From contig DIFW01000017.1 in NCBI GenBank assembly GCA_002419295.1, positions 57,099-121,098 of the forward strand: DNA of 64,000 nt, given 5' to 3'. Positions within the stretch are counted from its first letter, which is position 1, and every line of letters begins with the position of its first letter. This stretch comes from Patescibacteria group bacterium UBA5738 (GTDB lineage: Bacteria; Patescibacteriota; Minisyncoccia; Minisyncoccales; UBA5738). The notes under the pieces were generated by a model that saw only the letters and a program-made list of their open reading frames with translations, was not told where the DNA came from and searched no databases. The translations under genes and the position numbers were made by a program. This document shows positions 9,273 to 59,876 of this stretch, piece by piece.

Positions 9273-9290
9273 TGAAAATTTGATGATTGC

Positions 9291-9836: not shown

Positions 9837-9848
9837 CGTGCCGTTAAA

Positions 9849-10892: not shown

Positions 10893-10995
10893 TGTAAAAT
10901 TACAAAATGTCCAGCTCCCGACATTTTAACATTTTAATCTGTCATTTTGATCTTTCCGCCAAAGGACGGATGCGCCTTATGCGCAGATTTTTCAT
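10869..10995 (+). repeat. Intergenic repeat, copy A (19-mer aaatatcaaaatggaaaat ... ttccgccaaaggacggATGcgcct..agattttt)
   Basis: Two conserved blocks with the same spacing (about 80 nt) recur at 32289..32410. Block 2 contains an SD-like AAAGGA, an ATG and an MRL[MV]RRF start. Confidence 0.6.
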
Positions 10996-11014
10996 TTTTA
11001 CATTTATTGTTAGT

Positions 11015-43001: not shown

Positions 43002-44990
43002 CTATGCGGCGGCGGTTTTCCCAACATTGATTCCGGAATCGGTTTTGAGGGGTTCGTTCGCCGCCGGAGTTTCTTTTAAAGCGTTTATCGACGCTCCGCC
43101 GCCATTATTTTTCGGCGCCGCCATCGCGCCGGATTCCGAATCGGGCTTGCGGTTGATGATCTCGGGCGGCGGCCCCGGTTTTTGCGCGACCGCGGCTTTT
43201 TTGATTTCCGCTTTTGCTTTTTTGATTTTTTCCAACTCTTCGGGATTGGTGGTGATAATTTGATCTTCAATATATGAAGCCACCACTTTCATTGCCACAT
43301 GCTTTTGCCCGGCAAAAAACAACCCTTCTCCGATTTCGGCTTCCAAAAGCAACCCCTTTTCCCTTTCGGTGAGATTAAATGTTTTTTGGACCACATCAAT
43401 GGTCGCCGGCGATTGTTTCAGCAGGATTTGTATTGAAGAGTTGGTGATGATCGGCGGTCCGTAGTTGGAACGCATAAAATCAGCCACATCTTGGGTGATG
43501 GTGGAAACTCCCAGCCAGTATTTGCGGGCCCGCTTGCACAATCCGTATAAAAACGAGGCGCCATCGTCGTTTTGCATCAATACCCACGCCTCGTCAACCA
43601 CCAAAATCCGTTTGCGCAATTTGGCGCGGACCTTGTTCCAAATATAATGCATAATGATATACATCGCCGCCGTTCGGAACTCGTTTTCCATATCGCGGAT
43701 GCCAAAAACCACCAGCGGCTTGTCCGTGGAAATGTTGGTGGGTTGGTTGAAAAATTCCGCGTATGTTCCCTGCGTAAATTTGCGAACGCGGCGCACCAAA
43801 GAGTCGGCGCCTTCCATTCCTTCCAGCACCGCTTCCAAATCCTGCATCAGCGGCACTCTCTCCGCCCACAGCCGGGGATCGGTTTCCGGGGTGATGTCTT
43901 TGGCGGCATAAACTTCGGTAAGCGCTTGATCGATGATAGCGTCTTCTTCGGAGGTTAATCCTCCCAAAAGGATTCTTACCAATCCCACGACATTAATAAT
44001 GTTGGAGCGGATTACATCGGCCGGGTTTTCGTCTTCTCTCGGCTCGGGCAAATCAAAAGCATTGATATGGTAGGGTGACGACAGCGAAACATTCAAAAAC
44101 GATCCGCCAGTCGCCTCGGCCAAAGTTTTAAATTCGTTTTCCGGGTCCACGACAATGGCATCCACCCCCATCATCATTGAGCGCAAGATTTCCAATTTGA
44201 CGGTGTAGCTTTTTCCCGATCCTGATTTCGCGAAAATGACGCTATTGGCGTTTTCCATTGAAAAGCGATCAAAAAGTATCAAGGAATTATTATGGAGATT
44301 GGTGCCATAAAGAATCCCTTCATTGGCGGAGAGATCAAACGAGACAAACGGAAAAGTGGACGACAGCGGGCTGGTATTCATCGGCGTCCATGTTTGTATT
44401 TGGTCCATGCCGTAGGGACAGGTGGAAACAAAGCCTTCTTTTTGCTGATAGAGCGACGGCTTGATGTAAATCAGTTTGGATTCAAGGATTGAGCGCAAGG
44501 TGGTTTCAATATCGCGCAATTTTTCAAAATCGTTTTCATATGCCGTCAAATAAATTCCCAGACGAAACATTCTTTCGGTGGAAGTTTGCAATTTGTCGCG
44601 CAAATCTTCCAAATCTTGATGGGCGATTTCCAGCGCTGGATCGCGCACCAGTCCTTTTTCCTGGCGATCCATGATTTCGGCTTGAACTTCGGTGAGTTTT
44701 TTGCGCAATTGTTTTAGCGTGGTGCCGGTATCAATGGGATGGATATGGAAACTTACATCCATGGGAGTGTCCAGATTGATTACCGGAGTGAACCAGCCGG
44801 AATTCAAATAGCGCGGATAGGAAAAAATAAAAAACGATTTACCGCACCGCTCCCCGATCTTGAAATGATCCGACGCCAAAACAATTGACGCCGGCGCGAC
44901 AATATCTTTGATGTTGATCGTTTTCATTTGCAATTCTTGGCCAGGCAACGCGATTTTTTTCGCTTTTTTGGGGGGAGAAAATAACGACAT
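43002..44990 (-). CDS. VirB4/TraC-family type IV secretion ATPase (body)
   Basis: 662 aa. Walker A AKSGSGKSYT, VVDPENEF...INAFDL, Walker B LVVDEAWVLM, and a TraC-like N-domain (YPRYLNSGWFTPVINL). Low-complexity K/A/P-rich tail. Confidence 0.7.
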   Translation of the reverse strand: MSLFSPPKKAKKIALPGQELQMKTINIKDIVAPASIVLASDHFKIGERCGKSFFIFSYPRYLNSGWFTPVINLDTPMDVSFHIHPIDTGTTLKQLRKKLTEVQAEIMDRQEKGLVRDPALEIAHQDLEDLRDKLQTSTERMFRLGIYLTAYENDFEKLRDIETTLRSILESKLIYIKPSLYQQKEGFVSTCPYGMDQIQTWTPMNTSPLSSTFPFVSFDLSANEGILYGTNLHNNSLILFDRFSMENANSVIFAKSGSGKSYTVKLEILRSMMMGVDAIVVDPENEFKTLAEATGGSFLNVSLSSPYHINAFDLPEPREDENPADVIRSNIINVVGLVRILLGGLTSEEDAIIDQALTEVYAAKDITPETDPRLWAERVPLMQDLEAVLEGMEGADSLVRRVRKFTQGTYAEFFNQPTNISTDKPLVVFGIRDMENEFRTAAMYIIMHYIWNKVRAKLRKRILVVDEAWVLMQNDDGASFLYGLCKRARKYWLGVSTITQDVADFMRSNYGPPIITNSSIQILLKQSPATIDVVQKTFNLTEREKGLLLEAEIGEGLFFAGQKHVAMKVVASYIEDQIITTNPEELEKIKKAKAEIKKAAVAQKPGPPPEIINRKPDSESGAMAAPKNNGGGASINALKETPAANEPLKTDSGINVGKTAAA

Positions 44991-45008: not shown

Positions 45009-45656
45009 TTATTGAATTAATTCGGGCGGGATCTCCGGATAATAACCGCGTTCAGAGTCTTCAAGATGGTGCGAGCTCCATAAAAACTCGGCGATTTCAA
45101 GGCTGTTGAGCGGCACGCATTGCAAGCCGCAACGGCGCAATCCCAATGCCACGAACTCCATTCTTTGCGCCAGCTGGGTCTTGCTTTGGTCAAATTGTTC
45201 CTGTGCCGCTTCCGCGATTTTTTCGCGATTGACATTTTTTTCCCGTTTCGCCGCCGCCAAGCTGGGAAGCGCGATCGGCTGGAACGGCACAATCACATAA
45301 AAAGATTTGTTCATAATGGTGCCTCCCGAAACGATTTCATTAATAAAGTTGCGATATTCAACAATCTGCGTGCGCAGAAGATCGTTGCTTTGCTTGGTTT
45401 CCAAATCGCGCAACTTGTCCAAATAGCTGGTGATATTCAACTTGCGGCTTTGCACCAGAATCTGCAGGGAAAAATCAAGAGAATTCAAAAAATTTTGATA
45501 TTGGCCGATGACGGCGTTTTGTTCTTCTTCGGCCATCAGGGCGAAATTGATGGAATTAACCATAATAATCCCCCGCAACCCCTTGTTTTTCAGAACCAGG
45601 ATGCCGTCTTTGATTTGATCAATTTCCAAAAATTGTTGAGTGGATAGAATCGCCAT
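45009..45656 (-). CDS. VirB4 N-terminal domain fragment, separated from the ATPase body by one in-frame TAA
   Basis: 215 aa. IDQIKDGILVLKNKGLRGIIMVNSINFALMAEEEQ resembles Gram-positive-type VirB4 N-termini. The downstream ATG (44990) is 21 nt from the stop, in the same frame. Confidence 0.45.
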   Translation of the reverse strand: MAILSTQQFLEIDQIKDGILVLKNKGLRGIIMVNSINFALMAEEEQNAVIGQYQNFLNSLDFSLQILVQSRKLNITSYLDKLRDLETKQSNDLLRTQIVEYRNFINEIVSGGTIMNKSFYVIVPFQPIALPSLAAAKREKNVNREKIAEAAQEQFDQSKTQLAQRMEFVALGLRRCGLQCVPLNSLEIAEFLWSSHHLEDSERGYYPEIPPELIQ

Positions 45657-45668
45657 ATTTTAAATTTT

Positions 45669-46109
45669 TTACGCGGTTTCTATATAATCGCGGATGAGCC
45701 GCCAGTTGTTTTTTTTGGAAGACGCGGTAATTTTAATCATTGTCGGCGCTTTTTGGAGGGTGATTGTGCCTCGGTCAACGGCCTGCTGGTTGGGCAGAGA
45801 AAATCCTTGCCATAAAAACATTCTTGGCGATCTGGCAAAAGCGATATAGTGCTCAATCACCTTGATGATGTCGATGCCGTCAATTTTCACGAACGCCAGC
45901 GCGCCGGAGCATCCTCCAACGATGGCGATCATCGCCAGCGCCAGCGGCATGCTGGCCTTGCCGACCACAAAATAAATCACAAACGATATGGTGGTGCCGA
46001 TGCCGACAAAAATAAACTGCTTGAATGTGAGCGGCCCCACAATCTTGGACTCCATTTCAATAAATTGCGGAATGGTGAAATTCATGTTGGAATCATAATT
46101 CGCTTTCAT
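45669..46109 (-). CDS. Small two-TM membrane protein, VirB3-like (PrgI/TcpE-type) by position and topology
   Basis: Start trimmed to MKANYDSNMNFTIPQFIEME. Two adjacent hydrophobic helices. Lies directly upstream of the VirB4 genes. Confidence 0.35.
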   Translation of the reverse strand: MKANYDSNMNFTIPQFIEMESKIVGPLTFKQFIFVGIGTTISFVIYFVVGKASMPLALAMIAIVGGCSGALAFVKIDGIDIIKVIEHYIAFARSPRMFLWQGFSLPNQQAVDRGTITLQKAPTMIKITASSKKNNWRLIRDYIETA

Positions 46110-46291
46110 TATATCATCCTTCCATTTTCCCCGCAAAATTTCGCGCGTTAAAAACCGCCGCGTTTTGGCCCGAATATGGTTTTGTGAAAGCCATTTCGCG
46201 AGTGAAATATATTTGATTTCTTTTGCAATCCCCAACGAGGGGTTACGCTGTAATTTCTTGACAGATAGATTGGGTTTGATAATGTGAAAAT

Positions 46292-46633
46292 ATGAAAAGC
46301 AAAAACACATTGGAGAATGGATCGGTGCGGCATATAATTTTTAAACAGGACGGCGTTTGGTACGGCGTGGCTTTGGAATTTAATATCGTGGAAGAAGGCG
46401 ATAATCCGGTGGAAGTGATGGTGTCTTTATTTGAGGCGATACAGGGTTATGTTCAAACCGCGCAAAAATGCAAAATGAGCGCGGCGCCGTTAAACCAAAC
46501 CCCTGATAAAGAATATCAAAAACTTTGGGAGAAACTGTCCAAATCCCAAGTTGCGGGGAATAAAAACGAAAAATCATTACAGGTCTATAATTTCGGCTAT
46601 ACGCCCTTCGCTTCCTATGCCTTGTGCCATTAG
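46292..46633 (+). CDS. HicB-like (UPF0150) antitoxin-family protein
   Basis: DGVWYGVALEFNIVEEGDNPVEVMVSLFEAIQGY resembles the HicB N-domain. A TTGACA-17-TAATGT promoter lies directly upstream at 46257. Confidence 0.4.
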   Translation: MKSKNTLENGSVRHIIFKQDGVWYGVALEFNIVEEGDNPVEVMVSLFEAIQGYVQTAQKCKMSAAPLNQTPDKEYQKLWEKLSKSQVAGNKNEKSLQVYNFGYTPFASYALCH

Positions 46634-47249: not shown

Positions 47250-47621
47250 TTGGGAAGTGTTAGGCTTGGATTGTTAACGGATATTATTTTCATATCTTCT
47301 TTTCTTCCATTTGTTGTGGCATATTATCTTTCCGCAACATATCTATGGCCGATCATGGACGACCCTGTGATCAATATGGTAGAATTTTACATGGTTTGGG
47401 CGGTTGCCTTTGCTGTGTTTTGGACCATCATCAGGGTTTGGAGAAGGAAGAGGGTGGAATTAAGTGCGGTGCAAGCCGCGGAAAATAGGAAGTGGGGTGT
47501 TCCCGAGAAAGAAAAACCCAAAAAGAAGGAAAAAACCAGCACAGATTTGCTGGCAGAAGAGGTACTTAAGAAAGTTGAGGAGAGCATGGATGAAAAAGGA
47601 GAAAAAGGAGGTGAAAAATAA
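47250..47621 (+). CDS. Small two-TM membrane protein with Lys/Glu-rich tail, hypothetical (TTG start)
   Basis: Strong SD AAAGGAGG 8 nt before the TTG start. Two hydrophobic helices, then a KEKPKKKEK tail. Confidence 0.4.
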   Translation: MGSVRLGLLTDIIFISSFLPFVVAYYLSATYLWPIMDDPVINMVEFYMVWAVAFAVFWTIIRVWRRKRVELSAVQAAENRKWGVPEKEKPKKKEKTSTDLLAEEVLKKVEESMDEKGEKGGEK

Positions 47622-48895
47622 TGGCAATACCGTTGCCTGACATCCCGGGGGATATTATTTATTTGTTTTTGGGGCTTTTGGGTGTTTGTATTTTGTGTTT
47701 TTTGGTTTGGTTGGTTTGGTTCCGTATTCCAAACGATCTCCAAGGGCGGTGGTTGATCCGAATTAGCGAGGGTCAAGGTGGATGGCTACACCAAGGAGAT
47801 AACAAAATTGACCCAAAAAGAAATGATCAGGGAAATGCCGCAGGGGTAGTAACGAATGGTCCTGCGATTAAGCCAATCATTTGTTTCAAGGGGTACCATT
47901 GCGAAAAAAATGATGCTGGAGAATATATAGTTGTTCCAGATGTGGATAAAAAACAAGACAAGAAGGATTCTCCCGCGGGTTATGCACTGTTGTGGCCTAT
48001 TCTCTTTGTTTGGCACTATCTTTCTGCTTTAACAAAAAAGCTTTTCTACGGCATTTTTTGGCTTGGCCCTCTTTATGTGTATGGGGCGGGAACCAATAAA
48101 TGGGAAGAATGGGTAGAAGAGCGTGGCAAAAAGGTGCTACGGACATTTGATCGTCGTGAGTTCGGTTTTAGGCTCAAAGTTACGAACTTTGGGTTTGAGA
48201 CAGAGGCCGCTGAAGCAAAAAACAAAGTTCCTTATAAGATTAAGGGAGAAGCTTTCTGGCGTATTGAGAATATAGACAGAGCAACCAGAATGATAGATGA
48301 CAGCAACTATAAGGCGGCAGCGTTGCTGACAGGAGAAATAGTAGCATGGGTTAGCAAGGAACCAATCTATCATATTGAAAGAGATAGAAAAGGAAAGATT
48401 GTCGCCGTTGGAGCTGAGCCGTCGGAGACTTTGAAGGAGAAGCTAGTGGTGCATTTATCAAGAGAAGGAGGTGCTGTTGAAAGGATCCGAAAAGAATATG
48501 GATTCTTAATTAGCGAAATTGTTATTTTGGATATTGAGCCCATGGGTGAGTTTTCCGAGCTTTTAGCCGCTGAAGCAAAGGCTGAGCTCAAGGGGCAAGC
48601 CGATGTTAGAGCGGAAGAGTTTGAAATGGCAGTCCAAAATATTAGGAGAGAATATACTGAAGCATGGTCAGATCTTTATAGAAGAAAACCAGAAACATTT
48701 GTCCAGTTTGCGGCCAGAGGTATTGAAAAACACGGCCCTCCGAGCATTTTTGGAATTGAGGGAATGGTGAGAGGTTCGACTGCGGATGGAGACATAGGAA
48801 GGCTTTTACAACTGATTGCTCCCAAACTGTCTGCGGAAGAAATAGATAAAGTAATTCCACAAATAATGGAATTGCTCAAAAAGAAATCGAAATAA
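47621..48895 (+). CDS. Membrane-anchored protein, possibly SPFH/band-7-like
   Basis: 424 aa. N-terminal TM helix. ILDIEPMGEFSELLAAEAKAELKGQADVRAEEFE resembles the SPFH C-terminal coiled region. A/T-rich codon usage. Confidence 0.35.
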   Translation: MAIPLPDIPGDIIYLFLGLLGVCILCFLVWLVWFRIPNDLQGRWLIRISEGQGGWLHQGDNKIDPKRNDQGNAAGVVTNGPAIKPIICFKGYHCEKNDAGEYIVVPDVDKKQDKKDSPAGYALLWPILFVWHYLSALTKKLFYGIFWLGPLYVYGAGTNKWEEWVEERGKKVLRTFDRREFGFRLKVTNFGFETEAAEAKNKVPYKIKGEAFWRIENIDRATRMIDDSNYKAAALLTGEIVAWVSKEPIYHIERDRKGKIVAVGAEPSETLKEKLVVHLSREGGAVERIRKEYGFLISEIVILDIEPMGEFSELLAAEAKAELKGQADVRAEEFEMAVQNIRREYTEAWSDLYRRKPETFVQFAARGIEKHGPPSIFGIEGMVRGSTADGDIGRLLQLIAPKLSAEEIDKVIPQIMELLKKKSK

Positions 48896-49065: not shown

Positions 49066-50352
49066 TTATGCTCTCATATCTTTTATTGGGATTTTGCTTT
49101 CTTGATGTTTTTGATATTCTTCGCTTTGTCCGTATTTGGTATCCATTGATGCTCGCGTATCTTTGATGCCACCCTGTATCTTTCCTTCCATTCCGGATTG
49201 GAAACTTTTTCTTCCTCCGGAGGAAATTCCCTTGCCTATTCCTCCCGCCATTCCCTGCATGCCCTTGGTGATACCGCTACTGATTTCTCCGCTAAGCTTG
49301 GGAATCATTGCGGCGCAAAGCATTTGCACCGTCATCATATATATTGCCAGCGCGATCCAGTAGATTATTCCCGAAGTGATAAAAGAAATCGTATAGGTGC
49401 CAAACGAAAAAATTGGGGGTTCGTATTGCATTTCTTGCGGCATAATCATATAGGACGCGCTTAATCCGAGCGTAAGCAAAAACAACATCAATACTCCTCC
49501 CAATGTCCAGCTAGTAAGCCAATCAACCCATGTTTTGAAGTGATGTTGCGTTTGCGGCAAGACGCCGGCCAATATTGCCAGCGGTGCGAGAATTGCCAAA
49601 ATTTGGATAACAAAAACACGCGTTAAAAAAAACATTGCAAAAGAAAACAACAATCCGGTCAATGTGTTCATTACCATTATTTTAACGATCAAGGTTGGCA
49701 CAGTGTATATCATTAGCAAGAGTGTTCCCATTACCAATCCCAACCCGGCTAAAATATTCCATCCCAATACAACCGAAGCTACTGCGCCGCCGCTATAAAG
49801 CGCGAATAGAGACAGAGCATTTATAAAAATATCTTTGAAAAATATATCAAATACCGCGGAAAAGATGTCTCCCCCGCCGATGATAATGCTTCCCATTATT
49901 ATATTGCTTATATCAAGCAACATTCCCACAAACAACGGCGCGAAATGGATTAACAATGCGGCAACAAAAAATTTAATAAAATGTTTTTTTGCATTAATTG
50001 ACTCAACATTAAAAATCGTCCCTAGGGCAATGGTGATAAATACAACAATTAGCAAGATATCGGCTATTGTTGTGGTTATGCTTATGCCTGTTTGGACGAA
50101 TGCGCTGTCTTTGAGATTAAGCATTTCCGGGCTTTTGCTGATGGAAAAATTGAATAAAGCGCTGGCGGTTAAAAGATAGATCAATCCACTGGCAATTTGT
50201 TTAAACAAATCAAATATGTATTGTGTTACCGGCTTAACGAAATTCGAAAGCATTACCTCCATGCTTGCCGATTGGGCTACTGCCTGATCAGGGAAGTATG
50301 TTAATCCGACTATCAATAATATTACCAACAAAAATGAGAATTTTGCTTTCAT
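49066..50352 (-). CDS. Polytopic membrane protein with signal peptide and Gly-rich C-terminal tail, VirB6/TrbL-like by architecture
   Basis: 428 aa. N-terminal signal peptide (...DQAVAQSAS), about 8 TM helices, hydrophilic GxxG-rich C-terminus. Sits in the T4SS-like operon. Confidence 0.35.
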   Translation of the reverse strand: MKAKFSFLLVILLIVGLTYFPDQAVAQSASMEVMLSNFVKPVTQYIFDLFKQIASGLIYLLTASALFNFSISKSPEMLNLKDSAFVQTGISITTTIADILLIVVFITIALGTIFNVESINAKKHFIKFFVAALLIHFAPLFVGMLLDISNIIMGSIIIGGGDIFSAVFDIFFKDIFINALSLFALYSGGAVASVVLGWNILAGLGLVMGTLLLMIYTVPTLIVKIMVMNTLTGLLFSFAMFFLTRVFVIQILAILAPLAILAGVLPQTQHHFKTWVDWLTSWTLGGVLMLFLLTLGLSASYMIMPQEMQYEPPIFSFGTYTISFITSGIIYWIALAIYMMTVQMLCAAMIPKLSGEISSGITKGMQGMAGGIGKGISSGGRKSFQSGMEGKIQGGIKDTRASMDTKYGQSEEYQKHQESKIPIKDMRA

Positions 50353-50379: not shown

Positions 50380-51630
50380 TTAACGGAACATTCCGCCTAT
50401 AATTCCGATGAAAGTACCGATAACATTTTGAGTTTGATTGGCGATATTTACCAAAGTGCCTTGCTTCGTTTTGTCTTTAATTCTAACTGCGGTGATATTT
50501 TCAAAATTCGTTGCGCTATAGGCATATTCTTTAAACTCTCCAGTGTTCTCGTCGGCGGTTTCTTTGATGCATTTGCCTGAATCTCTGTTTAGACAGCGGT
50601 TTATTAAGCAACCGCAAGCAAGGAAGCCGCAAGGCTCCAGTTTAGCGGTGTCAACTGTGCCGTCGGCATTTTTTTTGTAGGAAAATGCTTGGTATGATTT
50701 TGGTTGGCTCACCGGGCCTTGGGGGAAATTGATCCATCCGCCGTTGATTGCATTGTTCCCTGCCCCCTCCACTTTGTATTCATTGCCGGCAAAATTAACT
50801 TCATCATAGAAGATCACGACATCACATCCCGTTTCAGGAGCATTATAGGTGGCAATGCAGGTATAGGGATTTGGCAGGCATATTTTTTGCCAATCAGTTT
50901 TGCTGCCGTTTTCATCAAAGCCATAATTGCAACCGCAATATAAGCTTTGGCAATCGGCATTTTTACTGCAAAACTGGTAATTATCACTGGCGCCTGGTGT
51001 TATTTTGGCTTCATTCCCCGTTTCGGCGCATACGCTATCGTTGCCGCGGCAACAGCGCCAATTTTTTGGCACGCATTGTTGGTCAAAAGTACCATCGGAA
51101 TCTTTACAGCAATTTATATTATCGTTTGGCCCGGAACAACTTCGGTTGTTAATCGGGAAATTTCCCGCAAGATTTGCCGGGATTGTCGGCAAAGCGACTG
51201 CCATTTCGGTGAGATTGGGATTGATCAAGCTAAAGATTGCCCAACTGGATAATAATAATGCCAGTCCGATCGCCGCGGATTGTATTCTTTTCCTTGCTTC
51301 AGATAATTTATTTGGATCGGCAACGGAAGTGATATATTGTATGCCGGCGATAATCAGCGCGATGAATACCGCCAATCCCCCCAACCCCACTCCCCAGCCG
51401 AAAAAGTAGCCGACAAGATCCGCCAGCGCTGAATCTTCACTCAATGTATATCCTCCCAGTGGAGATGCCGGCCAATCGGTTTGCAAGGTAAAGCCAAAAT
51501 CCGGCGCTTCACATTTCGTTTCAGCTAATTCGCTGGAAAAAATTATTGTCGCGGGGAACGACAAGAGGCAAGCGATTGCAAATAGTAAAAATGCGCGTAA
51601 AATATTTTTTTTAAAAAATTTGGAATGCAT
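50380..51630 (-). CDS. VirB2/TrbC pilin-like hairpin fused to a C-terminal Cys-rich extracellular domain
   Basis: Signal peptide, LADLVGYFFGWGVGLGGLAVFIALIIAGIQYITSVADPNKLSEARKRIQSAAIGLALLLSSWAIF (pilin-like two-helix hairpin), then about 280 aa with about 22 Cys. Confidence 0.45.
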   Translation of the reverse strand: MHSKFFKKNILRAFLLFAIACLLSFPATIIFSSELAETKCEAPDFGFTLQTDWPASPLGGYTLSEDSALADLVGYFFGWGVGLGGLAVFIALIIAGIQYITSVADPNKLSEARKRIQSAAIGLALLLSSWAIFSLINPNLTEMAVALPTIPANLAGNFPINNRSCSGPNDNINCCKDSDGTFDQQCVPKNWRCCRGNDSVCAETGNEAKITPGASDNYQFCSKNADCQSLYCGCNYGFDENGSKTDWQKICLPNPYTCIATYNAPETGCDVVIFYDEVNFAGNEYKVEGAGNNAINGGWINFPQGPVSQPKSYQAFSYKKNADGTVDTAKLEPCGFLACGCLINRCLNRDSGKCIKETADENTGEFKEYAYSATNFENITAVRIKDKTKQGTLVNIANQTQNVIGTFIGIIGGMFR

Positions 51631-51631: not shown

Positions 51632-52366
51632 TTATTTTTTGGGAAGGATTGATACTGATTCTATCATTTCGTTGATTTCTTGCACAATTGTTGCGGTGGA
51701 GCTTTGCGAGGTTATCGATATGGTGTAAATTTTGCCGGAGGGGGTGTCGAAAATGGCGTTGACTATTTTTAAATTTATCGTAATTTTTGAAGTTGGCTCA
51801 ACGATGGATTGTTCCGTTTCCACCACGGAAACGGTTTGGTCCCCTTTGACGATTTCGGAGCGGGCGATTTTGGCGGCGATATTTTTGGCGCGCAAATCGG
51901 TTTCAATTTTTTCCATCAGTTCTTCAGCGGTTTGCGCGCTTGATTCTTCCACGGTGAGGGAGTTGATCGACGGCATTATCGATTGGCTGGCGGTTTTATA
52001 GGCGGCGAATAATATCTTGCCGCCGGCGCTTTCCGCGGCTTGTTCGCCGAGATTCATCGGTATCCAATCAATCGGGTACTCAAAGGAGAAGGACTCGTCC
52101 GGGGCGGTCCATATTTTTGTTTCAACGGTCGTGGTGGCGCTGTCCGCCGGACTTTGCGCCGGATTTTGCAATTGGCCTTGTATCTGGCTCATAATGCCGT
52201 CAAGCTGTTGGCCGGCGTCGGGCACTCCTTGCATCAATTCTTGCGGCAAATTAAGTTGCAGATTTTTGATATTGCCCTGAAATTGGTTGAACTGCCACAT
52301 CGTGGAGCCGGCCAGAAACGCAATCATTACAAACACGCCGATTAAATATAGATTCACCAATTTCAT
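51632..52366 (-). CDS. N-terminally anchored hypothetical protein (possible VirB8-like periplasmic component)
   Basis: 244 aa. One N-terminal TM helix, a Q-rich linker and a soluble domain. No diagnostic motif. The VirB8 assignment is only positional. Confidence 0.3.
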   Translation of the reverse strand: MKLVNLYLIGVFVMIAFLAGSTMWQFNQFQGNIKNLQLNLPQELMQGVPDAGQQLDGIMSQIQGQLQNPAQSPADSATTTVETKIWTAPDESFSFEYPIDWIPMNLGEQAAESAGGKILFAAYKTASQSIMPSINSLTVEESSAQTAEELMEKIETDLRAKNIAAKIARSEIVKGDQTVSVVETEQSIVEPTSKITINLKIVNAIFDTPSGKIYTISITSQSSTATIVQEINEMIESVSILPKK

Positions 52367-52375: not shown

Positions 52376-54955
52376 TTATATGTTCCACCACACTCCCGCG
52401 TATCCGAACAATGAGGTGAATATTCCCACGATTGTCCAGGCGAAAAACAATATGAAATAGCCGATGCCGATCAGTTTCCACCATGAAATGACTTTTTGCT
52501 TGATTTCGGGAGTGCCAAAGCTGGTATAGAACAAGCCGCCGGTGGCCAGCCCCAGCAAAGGCAGAAGAATAAACGCCGCGCGGAACAGAATCATATTCAA
52601 AATTTGCATTATTACCAGCAGAAAATGCTTGGCGCCGCAAGCTTCGCGGTCGTCCCATTCGGTGTTGGGATTGTCATTGGTGAGGCCGCAGACCGCCAAA
52701 ACCATTTGCCCTTTTTCTATTTCTTTGCCGCCGGCGGCAAAATCAAACGACCATGTTGCCGGCGCCGCGCCCGTATCCGTGCATTTTTCGTCCAGACAAG
52801 CTAAAACCGACCACTCATATTTTCCCAGACAATAGAGCTGGCGGATGTCCTTGTTGATCGTCGTTGAGTTTTCGTTGACGATTTTTTCCACTTTTTGTCC
52901 GGGAGCGCAATCTTTGTTGGTTTCTTTGTCGGATTTTTCGGCATAATTCAGATTTAGTTTGTAATAATGCGCGCCGGCGACCGGTTCCCATGAAAAGCTG
53001 TAGATCAGCTGGCTGTTATTGATTGTTTCTTGCGGGTTAATCGGTCCTTCTGACGCGCCCAAGGCCGCGGTGGAAAAAGTGAATTTGGGCGAAGGCGCGC
53101 CACAAAGCTGGCCGTTTTCGTCGGCGCAAGTTTGCACGCTCCATTCATAAGATTGGCTTTGGTTGACGGCTGGATAGTCCGCGGCGTAATTATTGTTTTG
53201 CGAGACAATTTTCTGGCCGTTGAAATCCAAAACATAAGATTTGGCGCCGGCAACCGCTTCCCAATGCAAATCAACCGGCATTGCCAAATCGGAAGTGTTG
53301 TCCGCGGGGGATAAAGTTTCGGTTTTCGGCGCGCGGCCGGTGGTGCGGAAATACCACCATTGAGACCACGGCTCGTCGCACACATTGCCCACCGGAATCG
53401 ACGGCCAGCAAGATTTCACGCGCCATTTGTAGGCAGTGTCCAATTCCAGTTCAATCCCCTGCGCGTCGCTGTTGTTGTCGGCGGCGTTTGCTTTGGAAAA
53501 AATAATTTGTGATTTTGTGGTGCGCCGCTCTCCGTCTACCAATGATTGGCCGGTGTCGCCGGAAATTTTTTGAATATCATAAGCAAAAGAATTGGCGCCG
53601 TTGGGAGCTTGCCATAAAAGCTTTCCCGGCAGTTCGGCGAGTTTGGCGGTTTGCGCATTGGCATAATCGCCGTCATTGGCGGGCGAAAGCGCCTTCGGTG
53701 CTTCAACAATTTCATTTTTTGCGGTAAATTTCCAAAGCTGGCCCCAATATTTGTCTGATGATGAGCCGCAATATTCATCGCCGGCATTGGTGTTGTTGAA
53801 ACACCGCCGCAACTGCCAATAGTAGGTAATGTTTTTGGTGAACAGCGCCCGATCTTGACTGGACATTTCTTTATGCGACCACCAATTGCGCCCGACTGTC
53901 TCTTGCGCCGGGTTAATGACATCGGGCTTGCAGGTGTTATCGGTTTGCTTTTGAAGATAATGGCAAGCCATGGGATTTTGCAATGCCGGCACATCTTTTT
54001 TTAACCATGCGGCCAATTGAGAAAATCCTTGCGGGATTTGCGCGCCGGTCAATACCAGATGATTTTCGTTGGTATAAACACGCAACTGGTATGATAGCGC
54101 CGCGATCATATTATTGTTGTAGGCCATTTTTTCCGATGAAACTTTGGCCGAACACCAATCAAGCTTCAACCCATCATAGGAGATGCCGGTTTTTCCGTCC
54201 GGACCGTTCCAATCCGGGTCGCCGATGTTGATGGGTTCGGGAGCCGGGCTGGTTTTAAATGTCCACCATGGCGCTTTGTCTTCGGGCAGGCAATTGGAAC
54301 CGTCTTCGTTGCAACAAGGGCGTATGCGCCACTTGATTACCGTGTCGGAGTTATAGAAACAGGGGTAAAATTTTTCCGTCGCGTTAAATTCGTTGGTAGT
54401 CAAAATCTGGCGGAAAATACCGCCGGCGCTTTGAGAGTCGTTTAATTCCAAATTCTTGTTTTCTATTTCTAAAATATACGAATGGGCGCCGAATAATTTG
54501 GAAGTCGTCGCTTTTTTATTTCCCAATTTTTCTTGAAAATTCCAAATATATTCTCCGTCTTCGTTTTGCCACCCGTCGATATTGTCCCATGCCAAAACCA
54601 CGGGCAAGGTGATTTCATTTTCGTTGGTTTGCCTGGTTTTATTCACCGGATCGTTATAATAGTAATGGTTTTTGGGCATGGTCAAGCATTCGTTGACGCA
54701 AGCGCAAGCGCCCATATCAATATTGTCGTTAATTTTCAGTTGCCCTCCCTTTTGCCACGATTTGCAAACGGTTTCGCCGGATTTCGTGCCGCTAAAAGAC
54801 GCGCCGCATTCTTCCGGGATGTCAAAATAATCGGTTTCACCGATATCGGTTGCGGAACACAATAACGGCGCGATTGTTGCGGCCAAAAAAAATAAAATAT
54901 GCGGGAAAAATGATTTTAAAATTTTAGAAATCATGCCGATTTTTTGATTTATCAT
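52376..54955 (-). CDS. Giant secreted Cys/Trp-rich repeat protein with C-terminal VirB2-pilin-like membrane hairpin (paralog A)
   Basis: 859 aa. Signal peptide. Repeated modules (YKWRVKSCWPSIPVGNVCDEPWSQWWYFRTTGRAPK, YEWSVQTCADENGQLCG, WTFKTSPAPEP). C-terminus FRAAFILLPLLGLATGG...IGIGYFILFFAWTIVGIF. Confidence 0.5.
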   Translation of the reverse strand: MINQKIGMISKILKSFFPHILFFLAATIAPLLCSATDIGETDYFDIPEECGASFSGTKSGETVCKSWQKGGQLKINDNIDMGACACVNECLTMPKNHYYYNDPVNKTRQTNENEITLPVVLAWDNIDGWQNEDGEYIWNFQEKLGNKKATTSKLFGAHSYILEIENKNLELNDSQSAGGIFRQILTTNEFNATEKFYPCFYNSDTVIKWRIRPCCNEDGSNCLPEDKAPWWTFKTSPAPEPINIGDPDWNGPDGKTGISYDGLKLDWCSAKVSSEKMAYNNNMIAALSYQLRVYTNENHLVLTGAQIPQGFSQLAAWLKKDVPALQNPMACHYLQKQTDNTCKPDVINPAQETVGRNWWSHKEMSSQDRALFTKNITYYWQLRRCFNNTNAGDEYCGSSSDKYWGQLWKFTAKNEIVEAPKALSPANDGDYANAQTAKLAELPGKLLWQAPNGANSFAYDIQKISGDTGQSLVDGERRTTKSQIIFSKANAADNNSDAQGIELELDTAYKWRVKSCWPSIPVGNVCDEPWSQWWYFRTTGRAPKTETLSPADNTSDLAMPVDLHWEAVAGAKSYVLDFNGQKIVSQNNNYAADYPAVNQSQSYEWSVQTCADENGQLCGAPSPKFTFSTAALGASEGPINPQETINNSQLIYSFSWEPVAGAHYYKLNLNYAEKSDKETNKDCAPGQKVEKIVNENSTTINKDIRQLYCLGKYEWSVLACLDEKCTDTGAAPATWSFDFAAGGKEIEKGQMVLAVCGLTNDNPNTEWDDREACGAKHFLLVIMQILNMILFRAAFILLPLLGLATGGLFYTSFGTPEIKQKVISWWKLIGIGYFILFFAWTIVGIFTSLFGYAGVWWNI

Positions 54956-54978: not shown

Positions 54979-57930
54979 TCAAAGGATTTGGTTCCATAAT
55001 TCTTTATAGCCGACCAAATTCATCAAAACGGAAACAATGATCCACGCGAAAAACAAAATGCCATAGCCGATGCCGATTTTTTTCCAGCCGTCTTTTATTG
55101 TCGGAATAAGATTGGCCTTATCATGCGACAAATAGAACATTCCGCCGGTGATCATCGCCATTACCGGTAAAAGTATGAATGCCAGCTTGAACACCACAAA
55201 GTCAATGATTACTTTGGTTCCCAGAACCAGATGTTTGATTTCGCAAGGTTCTTTCTCGTTGTATTGGGTGTTTGGATCGTCCGCTGCCAATCCGCAGACC
55301 ATCAGTCCGGAACTCTGCCCTTTGTTGGCGATGGAAAAAAATTGTTCGGCGTAAACATATCCTTTTGAGGCGCATTTATCATCAAAGCACGGTTGCACCA
55401 CAAACGAATAATTACCGGCGCAGTATGGCGATCCGTTTTTATCCGCCGTTCTGATTGCCATACTGGTCGCGGAAACTATTTTTTCTTTGTATTCGTTGTT
55501 AAACCAATCCGGATCGCAGCTGGTGCTCTTCTCTCCGCTTTCAACTTTCGCGGTTACCAGAAAATATTTGGCGTTACTGCTCCATGTCAAACCGGAAGGT
55601 ATCCGCGAGATGTCTCCCGAAGGAGACAAGTTGGTTGGCTTAGTAAAATCTTTTGTGAGATATGTTCCAAAATTGCTCCACGGACCGCAAACGGTTCCGT
55701 TCTTGTCGGCACAAGTCTGCACCTGCCAGCGATAAGTTTCTTTTGCTACTTTATAATTGAAGGTATAGGAATTGGTTGGTTGAGGATTCGGATTTTCGAT
55801 GCCGACTTCTTTTCCGGCCGCGTTGAAAATCCTGACATTAAAAGATCCGTTCGCCGGCACGCTTTCCCATATGAAGGTCGCACTGGGCGCGTCGTCATTG
55901 GCGATTTGCAGAGAATCGTTTTTTGGCGGCCGTCCGGTAGTGATAAAATTTTGCCACTCCGACCATTTGCCGCCGCAAATTTCGTTGATATTGCCCACCG
56001 GGATTGACGGCCAGCAGGATTTCACGCGCCATTTGTATTTGGTGTTGATCTTTAATTCCACGGATTCGGGATTTTTCCCCTGCGTTGGGGCCTTGTCGGT
56101 GATGGCGATTGTAATTTGAGCTTTATTAAACCTTCGCCCTGCGTCATTTTTGTAGCTTTCTTGGCAATCCCCCGTTCTAAAAATACTTTCTCCGTTTTCG
56201 TCTTGAATGTCGTATAAAAAAGAGTTTGCGCCGCAGGGAGCGGTCCAGTTGAAAGTATTGTTCAATCCGATCAGATTGTTGTCATCGCCCCAGTTTTCAT
56301 TTTTCGCCGGGCTGATCGGCGCCGGCGGTTTCAATGTGCTCGAATCCATTGCTTTGCCGATTAATTGCCATTTTTGCCCGAAGTCTTCGTCAATGTTGCT
56401 GTCGCAGTGAGGGAAGCTGCTGTCTTCGGCGCCGCCGCTAACATTGAAACAGGGTTTGATTTGCCAGGAATACTTCAAATCGGCGCCTTTACTGCCGGTA
56501 AAAAGATTGCGATCTTGGCTGGTATTTTCCGCCGCGGAAAAAAAAGGCTTGAAAGTCGCGTCACTTATCAATTGATCCGTATAGGGGGAAAAAGAAAGAG
56601 ACTCCGGTTTCGCGCAACTTCCGTCGCTGTTTCTTTGCAAGTAATGGCAAGCTTCGGATTCGTGCTCCCCGACGGCCACTTCGCTTTTCGCGGCCTTTTC
56701 TATGCCGGATTCCATCCATTTATCGCATTCGCTGGCGCCGCCGCTCCACGCGTTTTTCCAGCCATCCCAGCGGGATTTAATGCCGCTGACAACGCCGCTG
56801 TTTTTTATCCATCCGAGAATGCCGCCTAAAACGGGGATATTCTCAATTTTTTCGATCAGTGCTCCCAGAGAAGTGTTTTCGCTGGACATTACGCGCATTT
56901 GGTAATTGGCCGCGTAGTCAATCTGGCTGTCGTTATAGACTTTATCAAAACGATTGTAGGTGTTCGGAACGGATTTTACGAGTTTGGCTTTGCACCAATA
57001 TAGCTTGGCACTGCAAAAATCCACGCCTTCAAGGGCGCCCGGTCCGTTCCAATCCGGGTCTTGGGCGATTTTATTGTTGCCGGCATATGCCTCTGAATCG
57101 TTGACACCTAAGAGTTCGGGGGCCGGAGAAGTGGAAAATTCCCACCAACCCTCGTTATCGCCGTATGTTTTACATTGCAATCCGGACCTGTCGCAACAAG
57201 GCAAAACTCGCCAGCGGTACTTTGAGTTGGTTTGAAAAAAACACGCTCCGCCGTCATCGCGCGAATTGAAGCCGTTTTTTTGCAGAACCTTGGCATAGGC
57301 TTCTTTTCCGCCGATATTTTCAATCGCGTATCCTCCGGCTTCGGCGAGATTTAAACCTTTTATTCCGTCCGGGGCGCCGGCATCATCCATGCTCTGGATT
57401 TGGACGCGGTAGCTCCGCGCGCCGTAATCAACGGTTGGCGCTCCCGTACCGATCACGAATTTCCCCTCGTTTTGCCATTCCGGGATATTATCCCATGCCA
57501 AGATGATGGGCAAGCTGATGACATCGGGCGTGTTTTGGTAAAGCTTGCCGCCTTCAATTTTTTTTGTCTCTTCGTCGTATTGCGCGTTATTATCGTAATA
57601 TTGCGGATTTTTTGGCGATTCAAGGCATTCTTTTTCACATTTGCAGAGTCCGTAATCGTTGCGCCCGGCTTGCGCGATTTGCCAGCTTGAGCATTTTCTT
57701 GTGCGCCTATCGTTGTCGCAACATGAAGGATTTCCATCTTTCTCGCAGGGAGAAGTGTAATGTTCCCATACTTCTCCGCTTCCGACATCAAAACCGTTGC
57801 ATGTTTTGGGAATATCTTCGTAATAATATTTATGGCCGCAGGCATTCGCTTCAAGCGGAGCCGAAAAGCAAAACAACACTGTTGCCGTTGTGGCGAAAAA
57901 AGAAAAGATTTTAAAATAATTTTCTGCCAT
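54979..57930 (-). CDS. Giant secreted Cys/Trp-rich repeat protein with C-terminal VirB2-pilin-like membrane hairpin (paralog B)
   Basis: About 983 aa from MAENYF. The same repeat family (YKWRVKSCWPSIPVGNINEICGGKWSEWQNFITTGRPPK, YRWQVQTCADKNGTVCG, WEFSTSPAPE). C-terminus KLAFILLPVMAMITGG...IGIGYGILFFAWIIVSV. Confidence 0.5.
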   Translation of the reverse strand: MAENYFKIFSFFATTATVLFCFSAPLEANACGHKYYYEDIPKTCNGFDVGSGEVWEHYTSPCEKDGNPSCCDNDRRTRKCSSWQIAQAGRNDYGLCKCEKECLESPKNPQYYDNNAQYDEETKKIEGGKLYQNTPDVISLPIILAWDNIPEWQNEGKFVIGTGAPTVDYGARSYRVQIQSMDDAGAPDGIKGLNLAEAGGYAIENIGGKEAYAKVLQKNGFNSRDDGGACFFQTNSKYRWRVLPCCDRSGLQCKTYGDNEGWWEFSTSPAPELLGVNDSEAYAGNNKIAQDPDWNGPGALEGVDFCSAKLYWCKAKLVKSVPNTYNRFDKVYNDSQIDYAANYQMRVMSSENTSLGALIEKIENIPVLGGILGWIKNSGVVSGIKSRWDGWKNAWSGGASECDKWMESGIEKAAKSEVAVGEHESEACHYLQRNSDGSCAKPESLSFSPYTDQLISDATFKPFFSAAENTSQDRNLFTGSKGADLKYSWQIKPCFNVSGGAEDSSFPHCDSNIDEDFGQKWQLIGKAMDSSTLKPPAPISPAKNENWGDDNNLIGLNNTFNWTAPCGANSFLYDIQDENGESIFRTGDCQESYKNDAGRRFNKAQITIAITDKAPTQGKNPESVELKINTKYKWRVKSCWPSIPVGNINEICGGKWSEWQNFITTGRPPKNDSLQIANDDAPSATFIWESVPANGSFNVRIFNAAGKEVGIENPNPQPTNSYTFNYKVAKETYRWQVQTCADKNGTVCGPWSNFGTYLTKDFTKPTNLSPSGDISRIPSGLTWSSNAKYFLVTAKVESGEKSTSCDPDWFNNEYKEKIVSATSMAIRTADKNGSPYCAGNYSFVVQPCFDDKCASKGYVYAEQFFSIANKGQSSGLMVCGLAADDPNTQYNEKEPCEIKHLVLGTKVIIDFVVFKLAFILLPVMAMITGGMFYLSHDKANLIPTIKDGWKKIGIGYGILFFAWIIVSVLMNLVGYKELWNQIL

Positions 57931-57937
57931 TAGACCA

Positions 57938-58738
57938 TTATAATTCAAAAACGCGGGCAAGGGCAATCCAGTCCTGCGGCGATAAATTTTCCGGCCGGCA
58001 ATTTTGGGGGATGCCGGAGTTCGCCATTGCCGCCTTTATTTTTTCGCGGGGCAGATTCGCGATTTGGACGAGATTGCTTGCCAAAAGTTTTCGCGGATGC
58101 GAAAATCCGGCTTTTAAAATTCTAAAAAATTTTTCCGAGAATTTTTTATCGGCGCGCTCCCCTTCTTTTGCGCGGGGAACAAGAAGCAAGATCGCGGCAT
58201 CAACTTTCGGCACGGGCCAAAAAGATCCCTTGGAAACATAGCTGATAATTTTGGGAATGGCGTAAAATTGCACGGCGGTTGCCAAAATGTTCGCTTTTGG
58301 CGCTTGCGCGCAAATTCTTTGCGCCACTTCTTTTTGGATGATCAAAGACATTAACGCCGGCGGATTTCGGCTTTCCAAGAATTTGCGGATGATCGGCGCG
58401 GCGGCATAGAACGGCAGGTTGGCGACGATCTTGTAGGGCGCGGCGATTTTTAATTCGTCGAATTTGAGCGCGTCGGCGAGAAACAATGTGAAATTGTCCG
58501 CTTTGTTGAATTTTTCGCGCAAAACATCCGCCATTCGGCGGTCTTTTTCCGCGGCGATCACGGGACGGCCGGTTTTTATCAATTCCGCGGTGAGATTGCC
58601 GGTGCCCGGTCCGATTTCCAAAACAGTTTCGCCCGATTTAATTTCCGCCGCGCCGATTAATTTTTTTATGATTCCCGTTTCGGACAAAAAATTCTGCCCC
58701 AGCCGTTTTTCCGGCCTGATTTTCAATTTATCGTTCAT
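57938..58738 (-). CDS. rsmA: 16S rRNA (adenine1518/1519-N6)-dimethyltransferase
   Basis: RLGQNFLSETGIIKKLI...VLEIGPGTGNLTAEL is the canonical KsgA SAM-binding region. Confidence 0.85.
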   Translation of the reverse strand: MNDKLKIRPEKRLGQNFLSETGIIKKLIGAAEIKSGETVLEIGPGTGNLTAELIKTGRPVIAAEKDRRMADVLREKFNKADNFTLFLADALKFDELKIAAPYKIVANLPFYAAAPIIRKFLESRNPPALMSLIIQKEVAQRICAQAPKANILATAVQFYAIPKIISYVSKGSFWPVPKVDAAILLLVPRAKEGERADKKFSEKFFRILKAGFSHPRKLLASNLVQIANLPREKIKAAMANSGIPQNCRPENLSPQDWIALARVFEL

Positions 58739-58820: not shown

Positions 58821-59876
58821 ATGAGTATTATTCTCCAACTGAAAAATTTCGCCAAACTACTCCTCGCCGGAGCGGTTTTGTTTGCCGTCTGCTCCGTGAT
58901 CTCCCGGCAGGTATCTCAGCGCGCTTCGGCCGGAATTAACGATGATTTTTGCGCCGAAACCAAAATGTTTGCTCATGCCGGCGAGCAGGCGAAGCCCGAA
59001 TCGCCGGATTATCTTTTGGCGGGCGAAGGATGCGTTAAAGCCGCGGTCCCGCCGGTGGCGATTACACCTCGGGTTTTGGCGGCGATTACCGGCGATTTTT
59101 CGGAGAACAAAGCGCAAGAAGAACAACAAAACACCATTATTGAGTATGAAATCACCGGCGACGAAACGCTGTCAAGCTTGGCCGAAAAGTTTAACATCAG
59201 CGTTGACAGCATCGCGTGGGCGAACAATCTTTCCAAAAACGCGGATTTGAAAACGGGAGAGAAATTGGTCATTCCGCCGGTAAGCGGGGTGATCCATCAC
59301 GCGGTCGCGGGCGATACGATCGGGCAGATTGCCAAAAAATACCAAGCGAAATCGGAAGAAATCGTTGCCTTCAACGGCCTTGCCGGCGAGAATGATATTT
59401 TTATCGGTGATATTCTGATGGTTCCCGGCGGCAAGATCGTTGTTCCTCCCGCGCAAAAGCCGGCGGCGGCAAAAACCGCGGTGCAGGCTCCCGCGCGCGC
59501 ATCGGGATTGTCGGCGATGCCGGCGGACTATTTCTTGTGTCCGGTGGGAGCGGCTTGCAAAAAAACGCAAGGATTGCATTTCTACAACGCGGTTGATTTG
59601 ACCGGAGGATATTGCGGCGCGCCAATATACGCCGCGGCGTCGGGAATCGTGGTCAAGGCGGTAACCGGCGGCTGGAACGGCGGTGCCGGCAATAATATCA
59701 CCATTTCCCATATGTCCGGCACGATAACAACTCATTATTATCATTTGCAAACAATTTTGGTAAAAGCGGGACAAGAAGTGAAAAAGGGCGACTTGATCGG
59801 TACGATGGGAAAAACCGGCAATTCGACCGGTTGCCATCTCCACTTCGGCGTGGGCGGCGCGGCCAACCCTTTTTAA
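58821..59876 (+). CDS. LysM-domain M23 family peptidase
   Basis: N-terminal TM helix, two LysM repeats (GDETLSSLAEKFNISVDSIAWANNL and GDTIGQIAKKYQAKSEEIVAFNGL), and a C-terminal M23 domain with HYYH...GCHLHFGV metal-binding motifs. Confidence 0.8.
   Translation: MSIILQLKNFAKLLLAGAVLFAVCSVISRQVSQRASAGINDDFCAETKMFAHAGEQAKPESPDYLLAGEGCVKAAVPPVAITPRVLAAITGDFSENKAQEEQQNTIIEYEITGDETLSSLAEKFNISVDSIAWANNLSKNADLKTGEKLVIPPVSGVIHHAVAGDTIGQIAKKYQAKSEEIVAFNGLAGENDIFIGDILMVPGGKIVVPPAQKPAAAKTAVQAPARASGLSAMPADYFLCPVGAACKKTQGLHFYNAVDLTGGYCGAPIYAAASGIVVKAVTGGWNGGAGNNITISHMSGTITTHYYHLQTILVKAGQEVKKGDLIGTMGKTGNSTGCHLHFGVGGAANPF

Follow-up and report, generated by a model that had tools for sequence, protein, structure and literature searches.

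A type IV secretion pilin-family protein with a cysteine-rich ectodomain in Patescibacteria

Introduction

VirB2-like pilins of the PF18895 (T4SS_pilin) family are known from Patescibacteria, for example from the essential array in the T4SS cluster SEML1_0006-0019 of Candidatus (Ca.) Southlakia epibionticum, and these genomes carry a relaxase-less, MPF_FATA-related type IV secretion system (T4SS) that is origin-proximal, near dnaA, dnaN, rnpA and ksgA (Quinonero-Coronel et al. 2025, PMC12102498). The T4SS and pilin genes of Ca. Southlakia are essential for epibiotic growth (PMC10633639), and a review of 2025 offers speculation on a conduit resembling a pilus (PMC12857230). Here we describe p416, a protein of 416 amino acids (aa) encoded at such a locus in a 64,000-nucleotide stretch of DNA (the window) from Patescibacteria group bacterium UBA5738, an ultrasmall and probably parasitic organism. 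We think it somewhat probable that p416 is a two-module T4SS pilin, which displays a host-binding domain by means of a hairpin that the T4SS handles. The T4SS and the pilin family are already known. What appears to be new is the combination of a VirB2-class hairpin with a large folded ectodomain, the rarity of that ectodomain, which has no Pfam family, and the VirB6-like protein that accompanies it. The available portions of PMC12102498 and PMC12857230 do not mention pilins that bear folded ectodomains.

The Patescibacteria pilin arrays are the nearest comparison. p416 shares with them the hairpin family and the plan of a signal peptide followed by a hairpin, and both kinds of locus combine a monoderm VirB4, PrgI/VirB3 and TrsD near dnaA, ksgA and rnpA. 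However, PMC12102498 treats the array pilins as small proteins in 2-11 divergent copies, whereas p416 has 416 aa, a 250-aa ectodomain and 10 predicted disulfides, and occurs as a single orthologue or as two copies, each with a polytopic partner.

With the VirB2/TrbC/TraA pilins (PF04956; the F, T, RP4 and R388 pili), p416 has in common a long leader, a two-helix hairpin, a basic loop predicted to be cytoplasmic while the protein is membrane-resident, VirB3/VirB4/VirB6-type neighbours and termini that would both point outward (PMC5018250). It differs in having no sequence match above threshold, in belonging to a monoderm and in being 3-4 times larger. The Mbov_0395 family of Mycoplasma integrative and conjugative elements (NF045849) likewise has the hairpin and a tie to a monoderm VirB4, and the sister model Mbov_0397 matches both the VirB4 and the TrsD-like protein of the window. 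Yet p416 scores below the family cut-off, and its Mycoplasma counterparts are short proteins that lack an ectodomain.

Two further comparisons concern the ectodomain. Microbial beta-gamma-crystallins (Nitrollin, Protein S, spherulin 3a) resemble p416 in the predicted fold of residues ~263-390 and in the first Greek key, but in p416 the second Greek key is replaced by CGxxACGC..C and an unrelated cysteine-knot module precedes the domain. In modular type IV pilins, such as those of Streptococcus sanguinis, a functional domain is grafted onto a pilin core. The likeness lies in the union of a polymerisation or anchoring module with a C-terminal adhesive module, so that a fibre carries the adhesin; the difference is that those proteins belong to an unrelated pilin class (a single N-methylated helix) and use unrelated machinery.

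Results

The p416 gene and its layout

The start codon of p416 lies one base past the stop codon of the upstream gene, p244. The segments of the protein are listed below with their mean pairwise identities across the family. The family alignment (A1) and the profile tests applied to single relatives cover 32 relatives of p416; pLDDT is the per-residue confidence of the AlphaFold2 model.

50380..51630, minus strand: p416 gene (416 codons and a stop), encoding a T4SS_pilin-family protein of two modules (open reading frame (ORF), PF18895, relatives, conserved gene order)
51523..51630, minus strand: residues 1-36, long Sec-type signal peptide with basic KFFKK and then a hydrophobic core (hydrophobicity, model helix 7-36)
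51421..51522, minus strand: residues 37-70, N-terminal segment, predicted to face outward, with near-invariant C40 and invariant W53-P54..P57 (A1 columns)
51217..51420, minus strand: residues 71-138, pilin hairpin (PF18895, NF045849, model helices; identity 0.79)
51145..51216, minus strand: residues 139-162, variable and probably flexible linker (pLDDT <50 over 140-158; identity 0.26)
50845..51144, minus strand: residues 163-262, cysteine-knot module with 13 conserved cysteines (A1, pLDDT 81-94; identity 0.40, or 0.29 without the cysteines)
50461..50844, minus strand: residues 263-390, predicted beta-sandwich, beta-gamma-crystallin-like (Foldseek, conserved motif in A1; identity 0.37, or 0.33 without the cysteines)
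50383..50460, minus strand: residues 391-416, poorly conserved tail (identity 0.16) with a low-confidence helix at 393-415 (pLDDT 42-60)

Hydrophobic segments occur at residues 5-36 (the signal peptide), 72-106 and 116-138, and the AlphaFold2 model, built with 32 homologues, has helices at 7-36, 69-104 and 106-136. It leaves residues 140-158 disordered and is confident over 160-390, which are mostly beta (block pLDDT mostly 81-95). The leader is probably cleaved around residues 33-36; for a 485-aa orthologue, SignalP predicts a signal peptide with probability 0.97 and cleavage at 26-27 (supplement of PMC10936435). Tails in the family are often amphipathic and rich in aromatic residues (W/F).

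A search with the whole protein retrieved 44 relatives, ~34 of them full length, and all have PF18895. Those with names come from metagenome-assembled genomes (MAGs) of Patescibacteria/Paceibacteria, Ca. Yanofskyibacterium parasiticum included, and a genome scan located 8 loci in Patescibacteria MAGs. Public annotation of the relatives already reads 'Type IV secretion system pilin'. Since homologues exist and every related locus of sufficient length keeps the gene order, p416 is a real gene, and a spurious ORF is ruled out.

A pilin-family hairpin

PF18895 matches residues 76-136 of p416 with 31.2 bits against a cut-off of 26.6 (E 2.4e-7), and it matches all 32 aligned relatives (best E 1e-12). 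The NCBIfam model for the Mbov_0395 family pilin-like conjugal transfer protein (NF045849) aligns to residues 71-136 over 66 of its 80 positions, with 35.2 bits (E 7.1e-9), below its cut-off of 40. A search with the hairpin profile alone retrieves small pilins of 93-127 aa that share the core motif G-x-QYITS-G-x-P/K ... A..RI..A..GL, and one distant small relative (P0136) matches both PF18895 and the TrbC/VirB2 family PF04956. At 416 aa, p416 itself falls outside the ~90-160 aa typical of a major pilin. By sequence, its hairpin belongs to the T4SS_pilin family of Patescibacteria and is VirB2-like rather than VirB2 proper.

Helix 1 contains an invariant glycine zipper, GWGVGLGG, and helix 2 terminates in NPNL. 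The loop between them, DPNKLSEARKRIQ, follows a conserved basic pattern, DPxK..A..RI.S, in which P106, K108, A112 and R115 are invariant. Given this positive-inside loop, both ends of the hairpin should lie outside once the leader is removed, with the loop in the cytoplasm. Both pilin termini are also outside in the F pilus, where the loop lines the lumen (PMC5018250), so that with this geometry a C-terminal fusion would be displayed outward.

As a side observation, the near-match to NF045849 hints that monoderm systems of MPF_FATA type have VirB2-like hairpin proteins; PMC12102498 treats such proteins as absent from that class.

A cysteine-rich ectodomain

The region behind the hairpin comprises 278 aa. 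The 21 cysteines of p416 are C21 in the signal peptide, C40 just after it, and 19 in residues 165-354, where they form the pairs CC at 174/175 and 193/194, CxC at 232/234 and 339/341, and the string CCRGNDSVC. p416 is the most cysteine-rich protein of the window: cysteines make up 9.8% of residues 163-356 and 0.9% of the other 43 genes (binomial P ~3e-14). In A1, the columns of C40 and of the 19 ectodomain cysteines show little or no variation. Mature proteins have an even count of cysteines (20, 24, 26, 28, 30, 32 or 34) in 31 of the 32 relatives, and the lone exception is truncated at its N-terminus. Conservation and even counts together imply ~10 disulfides and an extracellular location, since they mark an outside protein whose cysteines are all bonded. 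The pattern suggests that C40 is bonded to the C-terminal ectodomain, both being on the outer face. Relatives enlarge the cysteine-knot module with inserted C-x5-C-x4-C units. Neither DsbA nor VKOR, as a disulfide-forming system, was found within the 64-kb window.

No Pfam family matches the ectodomain in p416 or, apart from one insignificant match given below, in any of the 32 relatives, even at E <=10, and the whole-family profile gave chance or insignificant matches only against PDB sequences. When the ectodomain alone was searched exhaustively with HMMER against 1.84 billion cluster representatives, 16 clusters matched. Nine of these were known from the whole-protein search, all as PF18895 fusions, and most of the others are also 420-520 aa long. 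As far as seen in these sequences, the ectodomain is rare and confined to the hairpin fusion.

Structure comparison suggests a fold for the second module on which sequence profiles are silent. All 50 of the PDB matches listed by Foldseek for the p416 model have the beta-gamma-crystallin fold, headed by Nitrollin (3enu; E 1.4e-2, probability 0.99, TM 0.49 on the target). The Greek-key signature [YFW]-x4-[YF]-x-G is present as Y275-DEVN-F280-A-G282, within residues 270-282 (DVVIFYDEVNFAG), and is conserved in the family with the consensus FYxxPDFxG. The module also has six cysteines (269, 334, 339, 341, 346 and 354) and is closed by a conserved D386-x-x-K389. Profile-profile alignment (hhalign) with gammaD-crystallin and Protein S lands on the Greek-key motif with E 0.05-0.13, which is not significant. 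Because neither Pfam nor hhalign supports it and the calcium-binding motif discussed below is not conserved, we call residues ~263-390 beta-gamma-crystallin-like at moderate confidence only. A likeness of residues 163-262 to the Dickkopf cysteine-rich domain was set aside as insignificant (E 0.38 in the PDB search; one family member matches PF21481 at E 0.011).

An earlier note, made from the letters of the window, had proposed a two-helix, pilin-like hairpin after a signal peptide, and hydrophobicity, the AlphaFold2 model and PF18895 above threshold all bear this out. Its concern that the hairpin might be a generic double anchor is answered by the PF18895 threshold, passed by p416 and every aligned relative. 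The Cys-rich C-terminal domain that it described is there with the motifs it named, although the protein has 21 cysteines rather than about 22, and the Pfam search that it recommended for this domain places a family on the hairpin but none on the ectodomain.

A conserved T4SS locus

Apart from p416, the T4SS cluster and its flank include the following genes.

49066..50352, minus strand: p428, polytopic, with a signal peptide, ~8 hydrophobic segments and a Gly/Ser/Lys-rich tail, directly downstream of p416
51632..52366, minus strand: p244, a single membrane helix at the N-terminus and a C-terminal domain that resembles PsbP only weakly (E 0.012, below threshold)
45669..46310, minus strand: PrgI/VirB3-like protein, a 213-aa ORF (PF12666, 44.6 bits against a cut-off of 27)
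45009..45656, minus strand: TrsD/TraC-like protein of 215 aa, a separate VirB4 N-terminal domain (NCBIfam TrsD, E 4.6e-7; N-terminal matches to VirB4 models)
43002..44990, minus strand: VirB4 ATPase of 662 aa, monoderm CD1110/MPF_FATA type (NF045971, 360.6 bits against 325; PF19044, PF12846)
58821..59876, plus strand: LysM and peptidase M23 protein on the flank of the locus, conserved in position, possibly a cell-wall hydrolase in the role of VirB1

The gene order in the window is LysM/M23 peptidase (plus strand), KsgA, p995, p859 (two giant proteins described below), p244, p416, p428, a divergent pair (123 and 424 aa), PrgI, the TrsD-like VirB4 N-domain, VirB4, Jag, YidC, an intergenic gap, DnaA and DnaN. 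VirB4, the TrsD-like protein and PrgI lie within 8 kb on the same strand, and DnaA, DnaN, YidC, Jag and KsgA flank the T4SS cluster. No relaxase or coupling protein was found in Pfam scans of 46 ORFs, which are nearly all the non-overlapping ORFs of at least 150 aa in the 64-kb window. The p416 cluster is the origin-proximal T4SS of Patescibacteria described in PMC12102498. According to that paper, VirB1 homologues with M23/LysM domains are associated with VirB4 in Paceibacteria.

The block p995-p859-p244-p416-p428 recurs in the same order in every related locus that is long enough (L001 and L003-L010). Identities to the window proteins are ~90% for VirB4, 83-92% for TrsD, 59-77% for p859, 43-57% for p995, 34-53% for p416 and 35-58% for p428. 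p416 is thus among the fastest-evolving genes of the locus although its hairpin is nearly frozen. A contig from JGI 3300002446 (NAPDCCLC_10000892) encodes identical p859, p244 and p416 together with the C-terminal 646 residues of p995.

By position and topology, p428 is VirB6-like, and it is probably the cognate partner of p416. At a Yanofskyibacterium-type locus (L012, positions 6777..12803, GCA_032942435.1), the p416-like and p428-like genes are duplicated, as 380 and 434 aa, then a p244 homologue, then 485 and 450 aa. Since this tandem duplication took in both genes together, we regard the pilin fusion and the polytopic protein as a likely cognate pair. Two contigs of a single MAG (L009 and L010) hold one copy each of the pilin-fusion and polytopic genes.

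In other Patescibacteria, the same signal peptide, WPxSP motif and hairpin are followed by different cysteine-containing C-terminal domains, several of them Greek-key-like; the C-terminal domain of one such hairpin-first fusion (P0040) aligns to p416 at 70% probability in hhalign. Since other Patescibacteria share it, the order of hairpin first and ectodomain second is a recurrent design rather than a reversal.

Several details of the locus stand on their own. p244 is always directly upstream of p416, and the single base between stop and start suggests translational coupling; against PDB sequences p244 gave chance or insignificant matches only. The PrgI ORF is probably over-extended: homologues have 138 aa, tblastn matches cover residues 53-213, and a start near 46085 would yield 138 aa. 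VirB4 is split, with the TrsD/TraC-like protein covering the N-terminal part of the model and the ATPase the rest; the TrsD-like score is well below the 200-bit cut-off of its model, and PF26593 matches the orthologues. The divergent pair inside the T4SS cluster (47250..48895, plus strand) consists of a 123-aa protein with two membrane helices and a Lys/Glu-rich tail and a 424-aa protein. It has no Pfam or NCBIfam match and is conserved as a pair in locus L001. Its first gene (47250..47621, plus strand), the sole unshadowed small two-helix ORF, was considered as a major pilin and rejected, having neither a signal peptide nor a Pfam or NCBIfam match. Five of the related loci (L004-L006, L009 and L010) are titled 'Candidatus Pacearchaeota archaeon' or 'uncultured Candidatus Saccharibacteria bacterium', which are probably automatic mislabels given their gene content.

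Two giant proteins with C-terminal hairpins

The two genes upstream of p244 encode much larger proteins.

52376..54955, minus strand: p859, signal peptide, ~7 FN3/immunoglobulin (Ig)-like domains and a C-terminal hairpin (775-810, 816-849) (AlphaFold2 pLDDT 83, Foldseek)
54979..57966, minus strand: p995, a paralogue of p859 that shares its architecture (31% identical from end to end, E 9e-129)

Foldseek matches p859 to strings of FN3/Ig domains (cytokine receptors, contactins, the neck of the GhpA 'grappling hook', an S-layer protein) with E 1e-13 to 1e-8. On the hairpins of the giants, PF18895 stays below threshold (19.4 bits for p859, 15.1 bits for p995); across the giant family it matches 24 of 34 members (best E 1.8e-4), some of which NCBI names 'pilin'. 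The hhalign comparison of the giant-family hairpin with the p416 hairpin profile aligns the loop and second helix at 74.6% probability (E 2.7e-5). BLASTP between p416 and the hairpins of the giants gave no match, and a p416-specific hairpin hidden Markov model run against all six-frame ORFs of the window, too narrow for the hairpins of the giants, found p416 only. The link between the hairpins thus comes from the broad Pfam profile and hhalign.

p859 and p995 have the order signal peptide, ectodomain, C-terminal two-helix hairpin, the opposite of p416, as the earlier note had observed. Its suggestion that their N-terminal regions might be homologous to the Cys-rich domain of p416 fails: BLASTP gives E ~1, hhalign 0.06% probability, and the folds differ. 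The two topologies that it proposed hold for the order of hairpin and ectodomain in the gene but not for the membrane, as the ectodomain is predicted to face outward in both arrangements. A combinatorial system likewise finds no support in these data, given a five-gene set that is fixed and one-to-one orthologous across genomes. Modularity survives on the evolutionary scale only, in the other C-terminal domains found on the hairpin and in the duplication of the p416 and p428 pair in one lineage. VirB2-type hairpins can evidently bear large folded domains at either end. The accepted notion of a conjugative-type pilin becomes broader in consequence, with a parallel in the modular type IV pilins.

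Discussion

How might p416 work? If it is a T4SS pilin that displays a host-binding domain, its hairpin would be the assembly module, docking to or handled by the VirB6-like, VirB3 and VirB4 machinery. Packed against one another, and possibly against the hairpins of p859 and p995, such hairpins may build an oligomer associated with the T4SS, which would be a pilus or else a short stalk. The ectodomain, which evolves fast and is held ~20 residues off the hairpin on a flexible linker, would face outward and bind a structure on the host surface. In that case it would make contact with the host, or recognise it, on behalf of an apparatus that cultivated relatives need for epibiotic growth. Adjacency to p428, co-duplication with it and the position within the T4SS cluster point to specific interactions.

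A number of points weigh against this account. We know of no T4SS pilus observed in any Patescibacterium, and a p416 polymer is hypothetical. PF04956 does not match p416 even at E <=10, and it matches 6 of the 32 relatives only, at E 0.11 or worse. Against PDB sequences, the hairpin profile found no solved pilin, the matches being chance ones to viral coat proteins (E 0.26 or worse). An F- or T-type filament would have to find room for 28 kDa of additional domain per subunit, a steric burden that by a rough estimate would place the ectodomains at a radius of ~8 nm, and no small 'major' pilin that might dilute p416 in a filament was found in the window. Searches of Pfam, NCBIfam and PDB with p428 gave no match and no detectable similarity to VirB6. 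The crystallin-like fold depends on a weak Foldseek E of ~1e-2. Pfam crystallin profiles match none of 32 p416-family members at E <=10, and the microbial calcium-binding motif N/D-N/D-x-I-S/T-S is not conserved (p416 has NNAING and the family [IL]N[SG][GD]W, and the Ser/Thr-Ser pair is absent). Host binding, for its part, is suggested by location, evolutionary rate and context, and no ligand-binding motif was identified in p416.

p416 might instead be a static two-pass anchor derived from a pilin. Never polymerising or leaving the membrane, it would be a protein of the cell surface or envelope, for instance in a coat or as a spacer, independent of the T4SS ATPase. All three hairpin proteins of the locus bear large ectodomains, and the same want of a small pilin speaks for this alternative, as does the likeness of the giants to the strings of FN3 domains in S-layer and 'grappling hook' proteins. 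Ca. Yanofskyibacterium, too, has large PF18895 proteins, encoded by genes of 1143-1458 nt (PMC10936435, in the part of the supplement available). However, a plain anchor is not expected to hold 79% identity while the rest of p416 drifts to ~30%. Because the hairpin stands at 0.79 against 0.29-0.33 for the non-cysteine positions of the ectodomain, and because its zipper and basic loop are invariant, we do not take it for a mere anchor; its conservation points to specific helix packing or docking, with which a simple anchoring role is hard to reconcile. Strict adjacency to p428, co-duplication and the place in the T4SS cluster also speak against the anchor, and on balance we hold it to be unlikely, while giving it more weight than any other alternative.

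An elaboration of the pilin interpretation goes further. Rather than a bare VirB2 tube, the T4SS of this Paceibacteria clade might build a fibre or stalk solely of ectodomain-bearing hairpin proteins, with p416 contributing crystallin-like heads and p859 and p995 FN3 strings, and each type of hairpin might be loaded by its own VirB6-like partner. This is a tentative proposal that we regard as decidedly unlikely. If true, no earlier modular pilin system of the VirB2 class would be known, and the decorated fibre would be an attachment and conduit device for parasitising methanogenic archaea.

The compactness and heavy disulfide bonding of the predicted domain raise another question: could it be released? 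Among disulfide-rich proteins with a beta-gamma-crystallin fold are killer toxins and protease inhibitors (WmKT, SKLP, SMPI), and the structural matches of p416 are to single-domain microbial beta-gamma-crystallins. The hairpin would then serve for export and holding, and cleavage in the linker (139-162), which is disordered and variable, would free a stabilised effector or toxin onto the host envelope. However, the linker has no conserved cleavage motif in A1, the probable disulfide from the near-invariant C40 to the ectodomain would keep the latter attached, and searches of Pfam and PDB gave no similarity to any toxin family. We consider release improbable. Equally doubtful is that p416 is a structural channel subunit, a stand-in for the VirB5/VirB2 stalk whose ectodomain is a wall-crossing conduit rather than a host binder: it does adjoin and co-duplicate with the VirB6-like p428, and outer-membrane core homologues are not expected in a monoderm (PMC12102498), but core parts usually evolve slowly, whereas few parts of the locus diverge as much as this ectodomain, which gains or loses whole cysteine modules between relatives.

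To return to p416 as a pilin with a displayed domain, a metatranscriptome from an enrichment that parasitises archaea provides data on an orthologue. In the supplement of PMC10936435, PMX_810_sub_00168 (YFSK_1540) of Ca. Yanofskyibacterium is a gene of 1458 nt with PF18895 and a predicted signal peptide, and its expression on day 14 (9.97) is similar to that of L11 and NusG. Its neighbours have 735, 1302 and 1143 nt, sizes that agree with the gene order of locus L012. In two related genomes, PMX.50 and PMX.108, proteins with the T4SS pilin domain rank with those extracellular proteins of unknown function that are expressed most strongly (PMC10936435). Few machines have been shown to be essential to Patescibacteria as epibionts, and the T4SS is among them. 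The p416 family, in which a disulfide-locked ectodomain is joined to the most conserved pilin hairpin of the locus, offers a testable candidate for its contact element. Since a relative exists in the cultivated, archaeon-parasitising Ca. Yanofskyibacterium, binding and localisation experiments are feasible.

Other features of the window

The window also encodes a separate type IV pilus system, with four consecutive genes that have the type IV pilin N-methylation motif PF07963 (3361..6157, minus strand) and a T2SSE/PilB-type ATPase (30950..32278, plus strand). Elsewhere in the window (11015..14506, minus strand), a class I aminoacyl-tRNA synthetase of 1163 aa (tRNA-synt_1 and Anticodon_1) has an unusual insert, a histidine-phosphatase domain (His_Phos_1), in the middle of its catalytic domain (residues 497-656, E 1.1e-31).

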